Shown here in pieces: positions 676 to 30,616 of a DNA stretch of 33,766 nt (position 1 is the stretch's first letter; each line of letters starts with the position of its first letter). Location: the sequence record OR529306. The stretch is one strand, 5' to 3'. This stretch comes from Escherichia phage PCM001. The position numbers and the translations under genes were made by a program. Below the pieces are notes generated by a model. It searched no databases. It saw only the letters and a list, made by a program, of their open reading frames with translations, and was not told the DNA's origin.

Positions 676-3600
676 ATGGCTACATTAAAACAGATACAAT
701 TTAAAAGAAGCAAAGTGGCAGGAGTTAATCCTACTGCAGCTCAATTAGCCGAAGGCGAATTAGCGATAAACTTAAAAGATCGAACTCTTTTTACTAAAGA
801 TGACCTCGGTAATATTATTAGCCTAGGCTTTGCTAAGGGCGGGGATATTAACGGTAATGTAACTCAAAATGGTGATTATTTACAAAACGGCACATATAAT
901 CTTAATGGAACCCAGTTTGTTTATGCAGGAAAGTATATTGAATTCTTGCCAAAAACTGCTGGAAATGGCGCTTGGGCTAACCAACATCAGAATAAAGCCC
1001 CTATCTTTACAGATTTGAGTTCAACTACTTCAACTTCTGAATACCACCCTTTGATTAAGCAACGTTATAAAGATGGTACTTTTTCAGTAGGTACATTAGT
1101 AAGCGAAGGCTCATTTAGAGTTCATTATATTGATTCTACAGCTCCAGACAATTCTAAACACTGGGTCTTTAACCGTAACGGTAATTTTATTGTAGATTCT
1201 GGTAGTATTGAGGTCCGCACAGGTAATATTTCTGCGTCAGGCAATATTAACTCCGCTAATGGTATAGTTTCTGCTCCACAAGTTAATACGAAAACCATTG
1301 TTTTAGACACAAAAGCATTTGGACAATATGATTCGCAATCATTAGTTCAATATGTTTATCCTGGAACAGGCGAAGAAAATGGTGTAAACTATCTTCGTAA
1401 AGTTCGCGCTAAATCAGGCGGAACTATTTACCATGAAATCGCTTCAGCTCAAACTGGTAAGAATGATGAAATTTCTTGGTGGACTGGAAATACACTTACT
1501 ACTAAATTAATGGGTCTTCGTAATGATGGCGCAATGGTATTACGTCGTTCACTTGCTATTGGCACAATTACCACCGATGAAAATACTAACAACTATGGCT
1601 CTCCTACTCCAATGGGAGAAAGATATATTGCTTTAGGTGATGCTGCCACTGGTTTAAAATATATTAAGCAAGGCGTTTATGATTTAGTAGGTAATTGGAA
1701 TTCTGTTGCTTCTATTACTCCTGATAGTTTCCGTAGTACTCGTAAAGCATTATTTGGACGCTCAGAAGACCAAGGCGGAACCTGGACAATGCCTGGAACC
1801 AACGCTGCATTTTTATCAGCTCAAACTCAGGCTGATGGGAATACAGCTGGTGACGGTCAGACACATATTGGTTATAACTCTGCCGGTAAAATGAGTCATT
1901 ATTTCCGCGGTAAAGGAAAAACTAATATTAATACTCAGGAAGGTGTAGAAGTTAACCCTGGTATATTGAAGTTAATCACCGGTGCTAACAGTATTAGCTT
2001 TAACGCTGCAACAGGTAATATTGATTCTACATTAGCCTTTCGTCTTAATAAAGGCATAATTATTGATGGACCTGATAATCAGGGATTCCAATTTAATGCT
2101 CCGACGGCTGTAGATGGTACTAGAAGTATATACTGGAATAGTGGCACACGCCCAGGACAAAACAAAAGTCCTGTTACGGTTAAGGCATGGGGAAGTGCGT
2201 ACAGCACAGGAGATAAATCTCGTGAAACTGTATTTGAAGTTGGCGACGGCCAAGGTTATTATTTTTATGCGCAGCGTGTAGCTCCCGCTTCAGGATCTAC
2301 TGTCGGACCAATTCAATTTAGAATTGCTGGTGGTTTATTAACTTCAGGTAGTATTGTTGCTTCTGGTTCTATTACAACTGAATCTTCTTTAAATGTTAAT
2401 AATGGATTATCTGTAAACGGACAAGCTAAATTCGGTGGAACTGCTGATGCGTTAAGAATTTGGGATGCCGAATACGGTGCTATTTTCCGTCGTTCAGAAG
2501 CATCATTACATATTATCCCAACTCCTAAAGATGCTGGTGAAAGTGGTGGAATAAGTAATCTCCGTCCACTAAGTATTAGTCTTAATAATGGTATGGTTCA
2601 AATGCGCCATTCTGTTACGTTAGGTGATGATGGTGCTGGCGGTAATATGGTGACCGTTGATAATGATAATAAACTTGTTGTTATAACTAGCCATAGTCGC
2701 ATTTCTCCTAATTACCGTATGCAGTTAGGTCAGTCGGCATACATTGATGCAGAATGTACTGATGCTGCACGACCTGCTGGAGCCGGTTCTTTTGCTTCAC
2801 AAAATAATGAAAACGTTCGTGCTCCGTTCTATATGAATATTGATAGAACAGATACAAGCACTTATGTTCCTATTGTGAAACAAAGATACGTTCAAAATAA
2901 TAGTTGCTATTCTATTGGTACTTTAATTAATGGTGGTAACTTTAGAGTTCATTATCACGAAGGTGGTGACGGCGTTTCTACTGGTGCTGTTATAAAGGAT
3001 CTTGGATGGGAATTTAATAAAAACGGTGATTTTTATTCTCCTGGTAAATTAGGCGCTGGTAATGTTCGTATTGGTACTGATGGTAATATCACTGGCGGTT
3101 CTGGTAATTTTGCTAACTTGAATACCACAATAAATAACCTTAAGACGGATATTGTCTCAAGTTATCCAATTGGTGCTCCGATTCCTTGGCCTACTGATAC
3201 ACCTCCTGAAGGTTACGCCATAATGGAAGGTCAAACATTTGATGCTGAGTTGTATCCTAAGTTAGCTGCTGTGTATCCTTCCGGCTCTCTGCCTGATATG
3301 CGTGGTCAAACTATCAAGGGTAAACCATCTGGGCGTGCTGTATTAAGTACAGAAGCAGACGGTGTTAAGTCACATAGCCATAGTGCAAGTGCATCAAGCA
3401 CAGATTTGGGTACTAAAAATACGTCAAGTTTTGATTATGGTAGCAAAACGACTTCAAGCTTTGATTATGGTACTAAGACCAGTAATACCACTGGCAACCA
3501 TAGCCATACAGTGAGTGGTAATACTAGTTCCGCTGGTGCTCACCAACACGCGCGTTCAGGCCCTCAGATACAAGCCGGCATACCCAATAGCATATTCTAT

Positions 3601-4509: not shown

Positions 4510-5169
4510 ATGGCAACACCAAAAGTATCATTTTCACTTAGTGATATTCTATTTGGGTTGCTAGATCGTATTTTCAAAGATAACGCTACTGGAAAGGTTT
4601 TAATGTCCCGAGTAGCGGTAATTATTCTTTTGTTCCTAATGGCACTAATATGGTACAAAGGAAGTATTTTGCTGGATTATTATGTAAGAGCTAAGTATGA
4701 TACTTATACTGAAATAATCCAAAAAGAACGAGCTTTACGTTTTGAATCTGCGGCTCTAGAACAACTGCAAATAGTTCATATCTCATCTGGTGCAGATTTT
4801 AGTGCTGTGTATTCTTTCAGACCTAAAAACTTAAATTATTTTGTCGACCTTATAGCTTATGAAGGCAAACTACCTAGCACAATTTCTGAAAAGTCCCTTG
4901 GCGGATTCCCGGTGGATAAAACGGCCAATGAATATATAATTCATTTAAGTGGCCGTCATTTCTCATCTAAATCAGAATTTGCATTTTTGCCTACAAAATC
5001 TAAGACTGCCGAACTTTCTTATATGTATAGTTGTCCATACTTTAATTTGGATAACATCTATGCTGGAACTGTGACGATGTATTGGTATAAGGGGAGTAAT
5101 ATACTTGAGGAGGATCGCTTAGCGGCTATATGCAACCAAGCGATCCGAATACTAGGAAGGGCTAAATAA
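4510..5169 (+). CDS. t: Holin T, 219 aa
   Basis: near full-length match to recalled T4 holin (ATGKVLMSRVAVIILLF, ends ILGRAK); strong SD. Confidence 0.9.
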   Translation: MATPKVSFSLSDILFGLLDRIFKDNATGKVLMSRVAVIILLFLMALIWYKGSILLDYYVRAKYDTYTEIIQKERALRFESAALEQLQIVHISSGADFSAVYSFRPKNLNYFVDLIAYEGKLPSTISEKSLGGFPVDKTANEYIIHLSGRHFSSKSEFAFLPTKSKTAELSYMYSCPYFNLDNIYAGTVTMYWYKGSNILEEDRLAAICNQAIRILGRAK

Positions 5170-16821: not shown

Positions 16822-16853
16822 TTAAAATTAAAATGAAGCTCCCAAAGGAGCTT
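16822..16853 (-). terminator. Intrinsic terminator overlapping gene 39 stop
   Basis: - strand RNA hairpin AAGCUCC-UUUG-GGAGCUU followed by U-rich CAUUUUAAUUUU. Confidence 0.5.
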
Positions 16854-18669
16854 AGGACATCCATTCTTTACGAAGTTCTGAATCATCACCCAACAACATT
16901 TCAAAGAGTTCTTTCCAATTTTCAGGAAGTTTAACTACGTCGTACACAGGGTTCTGAATCATTTCACGATATTCTGACTTTTCAAGGGAGCCTAATCCCT
17001 TGATGTATCTAATACTATGCTTAGGCAGTGTATCTTTAACTTCTTCATACTCAGCTACAGTATAAAACCATTTTTGAGTTTTGCCAATTTGTGCAATAAT
17101 TACAGGCGTTTTAACAAAGCGAATACGTCCTTGTTCAAACAATTCAGGCCAATTACTAAAGAAAGCAAGCAAAGCCGGGTAAATACTTCCAAGACCGTCA
17201 TGATCGGCATCGGTCATAATTGCAATATTACGATAGTTTGTATTCTCTGCCTTTTCACCAAGAATAAGACCTGTGATAGCACAGATATCAAAGAGCTCTT
17301 TGTTCTTCATCATATCAGCATATGACATACCCCAGCTATTCATCACCTTACCGCGTAATGGGAATCCACCGTGTAGTTCACGGTCACGAACATCAATGAG
17401 ATAACCAATTGCCGAATCACCTTCTGTTAAGAACAATGTCGTATCTGCGTCTTTACCGCATTGGTTAGCTTTAATATGCTTATGAACCTTAGCTTTAGTT
17501 GCCTTTTTAGCTGCTTTAGTTTCTGCAGCCTTTTCTGCCGCCAATTTACGAGCTAATGCTGCTTCAACAATAGGCATAATCAAGGCTTCGTTTTTAAGAA
17601 GTGCCTGAGCAATTTTCTTAGCATCCAATTGGATATGATTACGAATATCACCATACGTTGACGTTAAACGTTCTTTAGTCTGAGAATCAAAACGCATGTT
17701 GCTCATGTCTCTAATAAACATCAACATTGTGAGGCATTCTTTAACACGAGCTTTAGTGACTTCAATACCCTTATATTTCTTTTTAATGCCGGGCAAAAGA
17801 TGTTCGCAGATATCATCCATTACACATTCAACATGATGACCACCATTTTTAGTATGGATGTTATTCACATAAGTTAAATGACGGAAGCCATCTGGTGATG
17901 TTGTGAATGCTATAGAGACTTTATCATTTTCTTGAATGATGTTATCTTCGCCAAATTGTTTAGCAAATCGTTTAAAATTACCATCAACCTTTTTACCATT
18001 AAATGTGAACTTGATATCAGGATAAACGACTGCCAATGTTTGAAGTCGGTCTAAAGTAATATCTAAATAAATTTGAGATAAATTATGCTCTTCAAATGAA
18101 GAGAAATCAGGAGTGAAGATTACTTTAGTGCCTTTACCTTTAGATTTCTTAGAAGACCATGATTTGTTTTCCATTCCGTTTGAACAGTTAACAGTGATTT
18201 CATTTTCGCCATCTGACGTGATGCCTGTAAACAACGTAGAGAAGATATTAGTTAAACTACTCCCGACACCGTTCATACCACCAGTCTTGCGTTCAGAGTC
18301 ATCACCGAAGTTACCACCGGCCTTTGGAATAGTCCAGGCTGCTACAGGCCCAGGAATTTGTTCACCTGTTTGGTCGGTAACTAAACCTTGAGGAATACCA
18401 CGTCCGTTATCTTCCACCGAAACTTGATTATTTTTAATTTGCACATCAATTTTATTTGCAAACTTAAATGATGTACGAATAGCTTCATCAACCGAGTTGT
18501 CAATAATCTCATCGATTAATTTAACCAGACCAGGAACATATTCAACTTGTTGATATTTACCAAACAAAAAACGCTCGTGGGCTTCTTTAGCCGAAGAACC
18601 AATATACATACCACTACGTTTCTTAATATGTTCTACATCTGACAATACCTTAATTTCATTTTTAATCAT
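16852..18669 (-). CDS. 39: DNA topoisomerase II large (ATPase, GyrB-like) subunit gp39, unsplit 605 aa
   Basis: N-terminal GHKL ATPase pattern (IDEIIDNSVDEA, EDNGRGIP, GLNGVGSS) plus TOPRIM-like C-terminal part in one ORF; SD GAGGAG. Confidence 0.9.
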   Translation of the reverse strand: MIKNEIKVLSDVEHIKKRSGMYIGSSAKEAHERFLFGKYQQVEYVPGLVKLIDEIIDNSVDEAIRTSFKFANKIDVQIKNNQVSVEDNGRGIPQGLVTDQTGEQIPGPVAAWTIPKAGGNFGDDSERKTGGMNGVGSSLTNIFSTLFTGITSDGENEITVNCSNGMENKSWSSKKSKGKGTKVIFTPDFSSFEEHNLSQIYLDITLDRLQTLAVVYPDIKFTFNGKKVDGNFKRFAKQFGEDNIIQENDKVSIAFTTSPDGFRHLTYVNNIHTKNGGHHVECVMDDICEHLLPGIKKKYKGIEVTKARVKECLTMLMFIRDMSNMRFDSQTKERLTSTYGDIRNHIQLDAKKIAQALLKNEALIMPIVEAALARKLAAEKAAETKAAKKATKAKVHKHIKANQCGKDADTTLFLTEGDSAIGYLIDVRDRELHGGFPLRGKVMNSWGMSYADMMKNKELFDICAITGLILGEKAENTNYRNIAIMTDADHDGLGSIYPALLAFFSNWPELFEQGRIRFVKTPVIIAQIGKTQKWFYTVAEYEEVKDTLPKHSIRYIKGLGSLEKSEYREMIQNPVYDVVKLPENWKELFEMLLGDDSELRKEWMS

Positions 18670-18691
18670 GTTGTCTCCTCGTTATGAAGGT

Positions 18692-18716
18692 ATTCTATCA
18701 TCCGAAATCTAAAGCA
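18692..18716 (-). promoter_or_regulatory. Candidate MotA-dependent middle promoter for gene 39
   Basis: - strand TGCTTTA (MotA-box consensus) 12 nt upstream of TAGAAT; about 25 nt upstream of gene 39 ATG. Confidence 0.4.
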
Positions 18717-18734
18717 AAAAGGGCCGAAGCCCTT
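18711..18734 (-). terminator. Intrinsic terminator upstream of gene 39 (possibly bidirectional)
   Basis: - strand RNA hairpin AAGGGC-UUCG-GCCCUU followed by UUUUUGCUUU; T-rich on the + strand side too. Confidence 0.55.
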
Positions 18735-19155
18735 ATTTAAATTTAATTTTCTGAAGTGCATCAATTGCAGCCAAACGCCCTTGTTCACTTTTAACTGTAA
18801 TGACCACATCGCCCGATACGATCACCGAACCGTCAACAAATTCTATAGAGCCTTTTTTGAAATCGACAGCTGTATCTGGTTCCGGAACTTCTTCAAAGAA
18901 TTTAAATTCTGCACCATAAAGCAGAATATCACCTTGCATACTAATGATTGTACGCCCAGGTCCATCGGTTTCAGCGGCAATCATTGAAACACCGTAACCA
19001 ATCATCTCTTCTACAATAAAATCTCTTGATAATAAAACTGTATGCAGAGTAGTGTTAAGACGTTTACCAGTTGTATTAAGAAGTCTCAAGAAATTATCTT
19101 CCTGTCCTTTGATAATACGATATTTCTTACCAACTTCAAAACCTTTAAAAGCCAT
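18733..19155 (-). CDS. Hypothetical protein (140 aa)
   Basis: ORF track; TAATTATG junction with upstream zinc-ribbon micro-gene. Confidence 0.5.
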   Translation of the reverse strand: MAFKGFEVGKKYRIIKGQEDNFLRLLNTTGKRLNTTLHTVLLSRDFIVEEMIGYGVSMIAAETDGPGRTIISMQGDILLYGAEFKFFEEVPEPDTAVDFKKGSIEFVDGSVIVSGDVVITVKSEQGRLAAIDALQKIKFK

Positions 19156-28627: not shown

Positions 28628-28790
28628 TTGCAACCCAATCAACCATATGTAGATGGTCTGATAATTGACTAACATGCTGAAGCTGATTAGACAAGAGCTT
28701 ACAAATAAGCTCACTGTTATCATTTTTAAATAGCTGGTCAATATGTTTCTTGTGGGCTTTCTTAAGCTGTCGTTTATTTAAACGAGCCAT
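28617..28790 (-). CDS. Micro-ORF, basic protein (57 aa)
   Basis: MARLNKRQLKKAHKKHIDQLFKNDN; TAATG overlap with gp56 stop; not in ORF track; alternative to the N-terminal extension of track ORF 28403..28741. Confidence 0.35.
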   Translation of the reverse strand: MARLNKRQLKKAHKKHIDQLFKNDNSELICKLLSNQLQHVSQLSDHLHMVDWVANET

Positions 28791-29311
28791 TAGTAACCTC
28801 GGTCTTGGCGAGCGAAGTTTTCAGCATTCTTCAAGTAATACAGTTTAAAGATTTCTTCAGCGGAAAGACCCAGACCTTGGAACATATTCAGAACAAAGTG
28901 GAGGATATCAATCATCTCGAATTTAATTTCAAGCTGGTCTTCAGGAGACAGTTCATCGATACGACGATTTCGATATTCAGCATGTTGTGCTTTCCATGGC
29001 TTCCATACAGAGCTAGCGGCTTTTTCACCATTGGACATACCACCAAGTGAAGTCAGCAGTTCACGGAATTCATCATCAATATAATCTTTCTGATTACGCA
29101 ACCAATCAACAACATCACCGGCAGTGGCCAATTCATCAGGATGTTTGTTATGTTCAGGCTTGTCATTTGCCAGACGAACCTGTAAAGATTTCTGCATATC
29201 AAGCATTACCTGCAGAGGGTCTTTATCTTCGTGAATCAGAGCATTAAAATAAGCTTCTTCTGCTTTATCAACACCAGAAATAAGTTGTGAACATTCGTTA
29301 AAGTGTGCCAT
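28790..29311 (-). CDS. 56: dCTP pyrophosphatase gp56 (MazG-like), 173 aa
   Basis: MAHFNEC ... DPLQVMLDMQ ... IDDEFRELLTSLG ... EEIFKLYYLKNAENFARQDRGY near-identical to recalled T4 gp56. Confidence 0.9.
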   Translation of the reverse strand: MAHFNECSQLISGVDKAEEAYFNALIHEDKDPLQVMLDMQKSLQVRLANDKPEHNKHPDELATAGDVVDWLRNQKDYIDDEFRELLTSLGGMSNGEKAASSVWKPWKAQHAEYRNRRIDELSPEDQLEIKFEMIDILHFVLNMFQGLGLSAEEIFKLYYLKNAENFARQDRGY

Positions 29312-29400
29312 TATTTTTTCCTTTCAATTCAGTATAAGAGAGTTAATTCTAACATTAATTTTATAAAGCGTAATAAATAATAGGTAACTAAGGAGATATT

Positions 29401-29598
29401 ATGTTTAAACTTCCATCGTTAATCAACGCTATTAAAGGCAATAAAAAGAAAACTGCTATCGCTGCAATAGTTGTAGGTGGCATTATTTCATGGAACTTCG
29501 GGATTGCACCATTGTTAGTTGCCCATGGTGTTATAGTTCCTTCTGTTCCATTGGATACTGTAGTTGATTTGGCCTTTGCTATTATAGGGCTTGTTTAA
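29401..29598 (+). CDS. Small two-segment hydrophobic membrane protein (65 aa), opposite strand to the early genes
   Basis: ORF track; strong SD AAGGAG 7 nt upstream; upstream AATAAATA resembles late promoter TATAAATA with one mismatch; convergent with gene 61. Confidence 0.5.
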   Translation: MFKLPSLINAIKGNKKKTAIAAIVVGGIISWNFGIAPLLVAHGVIVPSVPLDTVVDLAFAIIGLV

Positions 29599-29665
29599 AT
29601 CTTTGAATAACGAGATAATCTCATTTTAGCATGCAACCCACTTGAAATATTCTGTTTCATATATT

Positions 29666-30616
29666 CTAAAATTTCTTGTGTGTTGCATTTTCTTTCATTA
29701 CCATATCATTCACATCCTTTGATCTCCATGGAGCTCGGTCCCAGAACATGACACGTTCGCCTGCATCAACTAATCGCTTCATGCGAGCTATAGTATCCGG
29801 ATGCCTAGGTTCATTATCCATTACCCATACCCGACGTTCTTTAAATGGTACCACATCTAAATCTATTGAGCCGCCTGTAATAGCGATTGCATTGGGTATG
29901 AATAAACTATCAATAGGGCCTTCCATTACCCAGACGTCTCCTTCCTTAACACGTTCAACACCATAAATTTTTGTTGCAGACTCAAACGCTTTAATAGTGA
30001 TATATTTCTGAGGAGCATCTTTACGAAGTGCACGTCCTTGGAATGACTCAGCCTTCCCGTCTTTATTAAAAATAGGAATCACTAAACGCGGCTCAGGAAT
30101 CTCTTTCTTATACGTGCCTGGTTGAATCTTGTTGACCAATTTAGGCCATTCTAATGTGAACCATAATCTGTTCCATGATTCTTTAGGAATGCATCGAGAC
30201 TTAACATATTTCACAATAGGATGCTCTTCAGGCAGCTTGTCCAGACGAGAACAAGACGGCAAAGAATTTATAGTCTTTTTCTCTGGCTCTGGCTTAGCTT
30301 CAGGAACCTTTTCAATCTTTGGTTCCATTCTAGCTTTTTCTTTACGAACTTCCATTAGATATTCGCGATAAAGCTCTTCATCATACTCTTTTAAGTATCC
30401 GGAAATTGTATTGTGGTATTGACAATTATAACAATGTACATTACCAGGAGTACCGCCATAATACCATCCGCGAGCTTTCATTGCATCTGTCTGGGAGTCG
30501 CCACAAACTGGACATCGAAATGTTAATTTAAATGTGCTTGAATTATTGATTTGTCTAAAACGAGGTAGGTGAGAAAACGCACGATAAGCAAATTCATTAT
30601 CTATCCATTCAGCCAT
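29666..30616 (-). CDS. 61: DNA primase gp61 (zinc-binding plus TOPRIM), 316 aa
   Basis: WIDNEFAYRA..NNSSTFKL.FRCPVCGDS ... GWYYG ... CYNC and VERVKEGDVWVMEGPIDSLF match recalled T4 gp61; SD GGAG. Confidence 0.9.
   Translation of the reverse strand: MAEWIDNEFAYRAFSHLPRFRQINNSSTFKLTFRCPVCGDSQTDAMKARGWYYGGTPGNVHCYNCQYHNTISGYLKEYDEELYREYLMEVRKEKARMEPKIEKVPEAKPEPEKKTINSLPSCSRLDKLPEEHPIVKYVKSRCIPKESWNRLWFTLEWPKLVNKIQPGTYKKEIPEPRLVIPIFNKDGKAESFQGRALRKDAPQKYITIKAFESATKIYGVERVKEGDVWVMEGPIDSLFIPNAIAITGGSIDLDVVPFKERRVWVMDNEPRHPDTIARMKRLVDAGERVMFWDRAPWRSKDVNDMVMKENATHKKF

Follow-up and report, generated by a model that had tools for sequence, protein, structure and literature searches.

The interval between genes 56 and 61 of T-even phages raises the question of what is encoded there on the strand opposite to the surrounding early genes. 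It was addressed here with a 33,766-nucleotide (nt) stretch of Escherichia phage PCM001 (sequence record OR529306), hereafter the window, which is part of a Mosigvirus (RB69-like T-even) genome and is 97–98% identical between positions 28700 and 30700 to phages such as moskry, phage 55 and Ec3-ASingh. In agreement with an initial annotation made from the sequence alone, the ORF list of the window shows a single substantial open reading frame (ORF) in this interval, on the plus strand and encoding 65 amino acids (aa). The initial annotation regarded it as a small membrane protein gene located where T4 carries dam. Three questions follow, namely whether the ORF is a gene, to what its product is related, and whether it stands in for dam.

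Conservation and coding status of the 65-aa ORF

The ORF is a genuine protein-coding gene of the Tevenvirinae, vertically conserved and under purifying selection. The homology search suggested for the 65-aa protein returned a full-length match to the phrog_2024 profile (ORF residues 1–65 on profile positions 1–65 of 65; E 2.1e-27, 95.7 bits), and its homologs were found in 858 phage records by tblastn. An identical protein is present as a hypothetical protein in Shigella phage phi25-307. The ratio of nonsynonymous to synonymous substitution rates (dN/dS) is 0.13, 0.14 and 0.10 relative to homologs with 94%, 86% and 80% amino acid identity, respectively. Variable alignment columns number 46, 22 and 62 at the first, second and third codon positions. 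Residues W31, N32, P37 and G43 are invariant across T-even genera with fully diverged DNA (alignment A3), and in a six-genus alignment (A2) P47 and L51 are invariant as well.

When 1.84 billion representative proteins were searched exhaustively with HMMER, only 20 matches were obtained, all of them small (45–100 aa), and a search for related loci with the single ORF protein gave only two IMG/VR loci. Word-indexed protein searches recovered T4-like members only and no PF11351-annotated protein. No family was found for the ORF product in the Pfam and NCBIfam libraries, and Foldseek against viral structures gave nothing beyond the product's own family.

The ORF is short, lies in AT-rich DNA and is without annotation in the T4 reference, as would be expected of a chance ORF. 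The initial annotation had also allowed for a conserved non-coding region in related phages. Both explanations are highly improbable, given the family-wide conservation, the conserved Shine-Dalgarno (SD) sequence and start codon, the low dN/dS and the greatest variability at the third codon position. The description as a plus-strand small membrane protein gene inside a minus-strand early region is thus borne out by homology, selection and hydropathy.

Probable relationship to GTA_holin_3TM-type holins

For distant members of the ORF family, GTA_holin_3TM (PF11351) was the top family (sub-threshold matches from 4 of 24 family members, best E 0.03), and the family member P0092 matches holin phrog_3427 (E 5e-4). 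A weak tblastn match led to a 170-aa protein of Rhodobacter phage RC1, which is encoded directly after the endolysin gene and scores 24.2 bits on PF11351, compared with a gathering threshold of 24.8 bits. The C-terminal part of this protein reads ...WRPGLMYLIGLLWLWNVIILHVLNAIFKTALPPMPFDQLIQL..., with the same motif string as the ORF family. Together with five proteins recruited by tblastn similarity to it, the RC1 protein, the only one scored against PF11351, forms a set of six holin-type proteins (A5) from phages RC1, RcWaterboi, StopSmel, POI1126, phiM5 and vB_OspP_OH. All six genes are located immediately downstream of an endolysin or lysozyme gene, and two of the six are annotated as holin. 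Proteins of this type are encoded in alphaproteobacterial phages.

Profile-profile comparisons were performed with hhalign among the T-even proteins (A3), the whole family (A4), the six holin-type proteins (A5) and a group of 99-aa intermediates (A6). The T-even proteins align with the intermediates with 98.3% probability (score 73.3), the intermediates with the holin-type proteins with 94.7% probability (score 49.1), and the whole family with the holin-type proteins with 88.6% probability (score 37.5). Controls with shuffled columns of unchanged composition gave mean scores of 10–13 and maxima of 17.3–22.7, and 21 other hydrophobic ORFs of the window scored 14.3 or less.

The motifs WR...WN-x4-(P/H)...(F)G...LPPxP-x-(D/E) are common to the ORF family and the six holin-type proteins. 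The likeness to PF11351 proteins extends to the anchor (basic or WR-type), the W-N of the transmembrane helix, a turn of the (F)G...LPPxP-x-(D/E) type and a hydrophobic helix after the turn; both groups are small phage membrane proteins, made probably in the late programme in the case of the ORF product. Similarity to the PF11351 membrane core was obtained at the profile level through the intermediates. From these sequence comparisons, the core of the ORF product is likely homologous to the C-terminal membrane core of PF11351-type holins, and the T-even protein is likely a minimal version of the GTA-type holin membrane core.

Several observations weigh against this relationship. The T-even sequences without intermediates reach only 49.9% probability (score 28.4) against the holin-type set. 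The window protein alone scores 15.8 against that set, which is noise (best control 14.3), and 50.5 against the 99-aa intermediates; the holin link is therefore transitive. The alignment spans only about 45–49 columns of the hydrophobic region, that is, the C-terminal core. No family member reaches the PF11351 gathering threshold, and the window protein gives no hit to PF11351. PF11351 proteins are about 170 aa long and have a long N-terminal region, nominally three transmembrane segments and a C-terminal GGHT. The T-even protein, at about 65 aa, has neither the N-terminal domain of about 100 residues nor the C-terminal YMGGHTxKD motif. The neighbours of the T-even gene are genes 56 and 61 rather than an endolysin gene, and the T-even protein coexists with the dedicated holin T. 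In addition, direct biochemical evidence for the prototype GTA holin is limited (PMC3423380).

Predicted protein structure and topology

The topology prediction suggested in the initial annotation gives a basic N-terminus, one long transmembrane helix, a Pro-rich turn and a short C-terminal helix (Table 1). The first 20 residues include five K or R and no D or E. Because basic residues cluster there, the positive-inside rule places the N-terminus in the cytoplasm, as inferred from the sequence. The AlphaFold2 model (28-sequence alignment) has helices at residues 4–13, 15–41 and 51–62, with a mean pLDDT (predicted local distance difference test) of 79. The turn, HGVIVPSVP, is equivalent to the LPPxPL(D/E) motif of the relatives, and the same motif occurs in GTA_holin_3TM-type proteins. 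The initial description of a two-segment hydrophobic protein is a fair one on hydropathy and the AlphaFold2 model, but the second segment, of about 13–15 residues, is too short for a standard transmembrane span.

Putative late promoter and probable late transcription

The strong SD and the upstream late-promoter-like sequence reported in the initial annotation were both recovered. The -10 box is AATAAATA, which differs from the T4 consensus TATAAATA by an A at -13. Of the 50 late-promoter sites compiled in a review on late transcription in T4, 32 are perfect TATAAATA and nine have A for T at -13, making AATAAATA the commonest variant (PMC2988020). An SD of the (A)GGAGG type is kept in all homologous loci. 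A NNTAAATA box is found 12–22 nt before the ATG in 12 of 13 loci, covering at least eight genera, despite diverged surrounding sequence, and a perfect TATAAATA precedes the ORF homolog in Marfa and in contig L013.

The octamer WATAAATA is depleted in the window (5 found versus 9.2 ± 3.1 expected). Four copies lie in the right orientation ahead of gene 37, the holin gene t, soc and the ORF, and the fifth lies inside gene 37. The holin gene t has TATAAATA, 20 nt and then the ATG at 4510, a box-SD-ATG layout nearly the same as that of the ORF. Given the conserved NNTAAATA box, late, gp55-dependent transcription can be inferred, and the ORF is probably expressed late.

The initial annotation further stated that the transcript would be antisense to read-through from gene 61. 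No predicted terminator separates the ORF from gene 61 in the window, and the stop codons of the two genes share 4 nt (TTAA) in phage 55, moskry, T4/T2, KM16, Proteus phage ABTNLPp2 and Marfa. It is therefore plausible that the transcripts overlap in antisense, and the late transcript of the ORF probably extends into gene 61 in antisense orientation as a by-product. In KP1079 and contig L014 a short GC-rich hairpin lies between the ORF and the primase gene (Table 1). Termination or antisense read-through between the convergent genes is thus not a conserved feature.

The RNA itself might also be the main product. A late antisense RNA running from the AATAAATA box into gene 61 would oppose read-through towards gene 56 and shut down early and middle mRNAs, with the ORF being secondary. 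The convergent genes with overlapping stops, the missing terminator and the position against gene 61, which is kept in all genera, would fit such an RNA, and late T4 transcripts of either polarity, with two-strand transcription at several sites, are documented (PMC2988020). The low dN/dS, which reflects purifying selection on the protein, leads us to reject this as the main function. The strong and conserved SD, the residues that stay invariant in fully diverged DNA and the homologs in unrelated phages without an adjoining primase gene likewise argue for the protein; the hairpins in KP1079 and L014 would stop such an RNA, and an Rfam search of positions 29100–29900 matched no RNA family. Antisense RNA as the principal product is therefore very unlikely.

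The T4 copy and the relation to dam

A small plus-strand ORF convergent with the primase gene 61 is present in at least eight Tevenvirinae genera. The loci compared come from Mosigvirus, T4, T2, SP18 (Gaprivervirus), KM16 (Moonvirus), KP1079 (Jiaodavirus), Proteus phage ABTNLPp2 (Gelderlandvirus), Marfa (Slopekvirus) and T4-like contigs including L015. The window ORF has this phrog_2024 position, on the plus strand and convergent with gene 61. It is a full-length member of the phrog_2024 / RB69ORF029w and RB32030w-type proteins and shows no difference from them, and its position and orientation beside gene 61 are the same in the genera examined. The interval between the ORF and gene 56 varies by genome and contains nothing, dam, homing endonucleases or other small ORFs.

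The statement in the initial annotation that dam lies between genes 56 and 61 of T4 is correct according to the NC_000866 annotation. The T4 order is gene 56, dam (16846–17625, minus strand), a 309-nt unannotated gap and gene 61 (17935–18963, minus strand). The gap overlaps a T4 homolog of 66 aa at NC_000866 17738–17938 on the plus strand (L003 3239–3439), which shares 55% identity with the window protein and is preceded by an AGGAGG SD of its own and, 21 nt upstream of the ATG, by a GATAAATA box. This ORF is unannotated both in RefSeq NC_000866 and in the 1984 record X01416, and the exact T4 protein occurs in the protein collection only via raw-read assemblies, not from any annotated T4 record. 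T2 annotates its copy as "similar to RB69ORF029w; RB32030w". T4 and T2 therefore hold both genes in the order 56, dam, ORF (plus strand), 61, and the placement of the ORF "where T4 carries dam" does not stand.

A tblastn search of the window with T4 Dam, another check proposed at the outset, gave a best E of 0.3 and no Dam homolog. No Mosigvirus names appear among the 60 of 760 phage records with a T4 Dam homolog that were listed, spread across the ranking. A Dam with 90% or more identity to the T4 enzyme is encoded in only about 180 records, whereas the small ORF occurs in many more Tequatrovirus records, so dam seems to be variably present even within Tequatrovirus. Since T4 and T2 carry dam together with the ORF, dam is an extra insert in some Tequatroviruses and not the counterpart of the ORF. 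The initial reading, in which the ORF occupies the dam slot as a lineage-specific replacement, draws on the absence of dam between genes 56 and 61 in Mosigvirus and its presence in T4. It is refuted by the T4 and T2 loci and contradicted by the presence of the ORF regardless of dam or other inserts such as homing endonucleases and extra ORFs.

Distant relatives and tandem paralogs

The 99–100-aa family members are located at the end of a late operon, with a Phage_lysozyme gene about 1.3–1.6 kb upstream (contigs L017 and L028). In L016, L018 and L027 the member closes the structural operon, behind tail-tip or tail-fibre genes, and the context in L029 is uninformative. Most neighbours of the distant homologs have no PHROG function; only weak matches were found, to holin phrog_1296 (a 101-aa neighbour) and to DUF2730-like families. 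The context of the distant members is compatible with a role in a lysis cassette and is not specific for one.

Genes for DUF2730 or DUF2730-like proteins (phrog_736 / phrog_1009) recur near family members or near a GTA_holin_3TM-type gene in unrelated phages (Table 1), and a DUF2730 protein also follows the RC1 holin-type gene. This recurrence suggests that a DUF2730 gene and a family member or GTA_holin_3TM-type gene form a conserved pair in lysis regions.

Tandem family members were found in the Mosigvirus-like relatives ESCO47, L012 and L013, where a second paralog lies directly upstream of the ORF and both stand behind a single late box, CATAAATA or TATAAATA. Sharing one late box, the tandem paralogs constitute one late operon. 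The DNA upstream of the pair is homologous to the promoter region of the window, which carries the downstream paralog only behind this homologous promoter DNA. By analogy only, such paired small membrane proteins are reminiscent of holin/antiholin pairs.

Possible role of the ORF product

An accessory role in lysis or membrane permeabilisation beside holin T is tentatively proposed for the ORF product. The gp55-RNA polymerase would transcribe the ORF late in infection, and the product would become an inner-membrane protein whose basic N-terminus faces the cytoplasm. One transmembrane helix with the invariant W-N...P motif would be followed by a Pro-rich periplasmic turn, and the short hydrophobic C-terminal helix would lie in, or re-enter, the outer leaflet. 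Oligomerising in the inner membrane late in infection, the product might permeabilise the membrane or tune the timing of lysis as an accessory to the main holin T. A small protein with at least one transmembrane domain, as predicted here, is in line with the holin class.

Other findings count against a function in lysis. T4 t-null mutants fail to lyse, and therefore the ORF product is not the main holin and cannot replace T. The charged hydrophilic C-terminal tail of the holin class is missing, as the protein ends in ...DLAFAIIGLV and carries its charge at the N-terminus. In the siphophage-like contigs the family member is not in the canonical first "holin" slot, and in L016 the 179-aa ORF downstream resembles a minor tail protein and not an endolysin. 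Literature on T4 late and antisense transcription, ribosome profiling, unannotated T4 genes and RB69ORF029w included no paper on the ORF.

Alternatively, the product could be a late small membrane protein with a role outside lysis, such as blocking superinfection or DNA entry, protecting the envelope or serving in assembly as a membrane-bound factor. Its resemblance to the holin core would then reflect a shared membrane-insertion or oligomerisation module only. The homologs that directly follow tail-tip or tail-fibre genes agree with this, as siphophages often place exclusion genes there. The T-even ORF also lies in the same early-region block as the membrane or periplasmic exclusion genes imm and sp, lacks the holin-type charged C-terminus and belongs to phages in which T already serves as holin. 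On the other side, the late-promoter box speaks against early exclusion of superinfecting phage, other distant homologs are in operons with a lysozyme gene, and the profile link leads to proteins encoded directly after endolysin genes. A function in exclusion is a credible competing explanation; a role outside lysis as a whole appears rather unlikely.

The accessory lysis role would have a wider form, in which all T-even phages including T4 have an overlooked second holin-superfamily protein, reduced to a GTA-type holin core, that is produced late and acts in lysis timing or inhibition. We consider this doubtful. Membrane depolarisation or an influence on T/RI would be examples of how such a protein might act.

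Comparison with known holins

The ORF resembles the gene of the T4 holin T (PF11031) in being a plus-strand gene, probably late in the case of the ORF, with a late box followed by about 20 nt, including AAGGAG, and an ATG, and both products are inner-membrane proteins, predicted in the case of the ORF, with a single transmembrane helix near the N-terminus. The two proteins share no sequence similarity. T, at 219 aa, includes a large periplasmic domain; almost nothing of the ORF product would lie outside the membrane.

Class II holins and pinholins, such as S21 68, have about 70 aa and two transmembrane domains. The ORF product is generally similar to them in size, two hydrophobic segments, acidic residues in the second segment and probable late expression, a descriptive likeness. 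It differs in its hydrophobic C-terminus and short second segment.

Significance for the T4 gene set

Hundreds of genomes already list the ORF as a "hypothetical protein", and two records (KP1079 and the UniRef name for OE5505) give it an automatic name of "holin" or "putative holin", so its novelty is modest. The new elements are the missing T4 annotation, the chain of homology documented here and the promoter comparison across genera. Because it is absent from the T4 reference annotation, the ORF would be missing from studies relying on the T4 gene list, and the T4 RefSeq gap 17626–17934 deserves annotation.

T4 lysis (T, RI, RIII, E and spanins) is a textbook system regarded as essentially complete, and a conserved, probably late membrane protein of likely holin-family ancestry is a candidate additional player in it. 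If a second holin-superfamily protein does exist, classical T4 genetics and the reference annotation would have overlooked a T-even gene. At about 65 aa, the ORF product may also serve as a minimal model for the core conserved among GTA-holin family members. Should it prove unrelated to lysis, it would simply add to the conserved small membrane proteins, as is common in T-even genomes.

Gene neighbourhood and sequence quality

The coordinates of the ORF, its predicted segments and signals, the neighbouring genes and the features of related loci are listed in Table 1.

Table 1. Features of the ORF region, with positions in the window unless a contig is named
Feature	Position	Strand	Description
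65-aa ORF (RB69ORF029w-type; phrog_2024)	29401..29598	+	ATG start, TAA stop; predicted small inner-membrane protein
Residues 1-17	29401..29451	+	Basic, partly amphipathic N-terminus (K3, K12, K15-17); charge count, hydropathy; AlphaFold2 helix 4-13
Residues 18-41	29452..29523	+	Predicted transmembrane helix with invariant W31-N32 and P37; alignments, hydropathy, AlphaFold2
Residues 42-50	29524..29550	+	Conserved turn (A)HG-x3-P-x-V-P; alignments A2-A4
Residues 51-65	29551..29595	+	Predicted short hydrophobic C-terminal helix with D52 and D56; hydropathy, AlphaFold2
Late-promoter-like -10 box AATAAATA	29372..29379	+	T4 consensus TATAAATA with A at -13; 21 nt upstream of ATG
Shine-Dalgarno AAGGAG	29390..29395	+	5 nt before ATG
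TTAA	29595..29598		Site where the ORF and gene 61 stops overlap in relatives (convergent genes)
Gene 56 (dCTPase / NTP pyrophosphohydrolase)	28790..29311	-	phrog_173, E 1e-45; divergent neighbour of the ORF
Putative MotA-type middle promoter for gene 56	29346..29369	-	GCTTTA, 12 nt, TAGAAT; read from the sequence
Gene 61 (DNA primase)	29666..30616	-	phrog_47, E 4e-93; 316 aa versus 340
Holin T	4510..5169		Pfam Phage_holin_T, E 1e-90
WATAAATA copies	490, 3129, 4482 (+), 28432 (-), 29372 (+)		
Second paralog, L011	2305-2508		67-68 aa, directly upstream of the ORF
Second paralog, L012	2305-2508		67-68 aa, directly upstream of the ORF
Second paralog, L013	2285-2491		67-68 aa, directly upstream of the ORF
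Hairpin, KP1079 (L007)	2609-2626		Short, GC-rich; between ORF and primase gene
Hairpin, L014	just after 2698		Short, GC-rich; between ORF and primase gene
DUF2730(-like), L019	4207-4608		phrog_736 / phrog_1009
DUF2730(-like), L017	2647-2910		phrog_736 / phrog_1009
DUF2730(-like), L018	4287-4592		phrog_736 / phrog_1009
DUF2730(-like), L016	4260-4544		phrog_736 / phrog_1009

Compared with phage 55 and moskry, one G is missing in the window between 29679 and 29680 (GTGTG instead of GTGGTG). The frame of gene 61 consequently ends at 29666 (316 aa) and not at about 29595 (340 aa). The deletion is absent from all 154 matching phage records and therefore reflects either an error of sequencing or assembly or a frameshift private to this phage that alters the C-terminus of the primase. 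The T-run at 29314–29319 in the leader of gene 56 has six T, compared with five in phage 55 and moskry. This second homopolymer-length difference, less than 400 nt from the primase frameshift, hints at sequencing error.

The putative middle promoter of gene 56, tentatively of the MotA type, stands back-to-back with the plus-strand late box. At the equivalent position in T4, upstream of gene 69/56, lies the mot-box promoter P(M)16.53, and an origin note in the T4 RefSeq record gives the oriA primer RNA as the transcript for gene 56 and the genes downstream of it.

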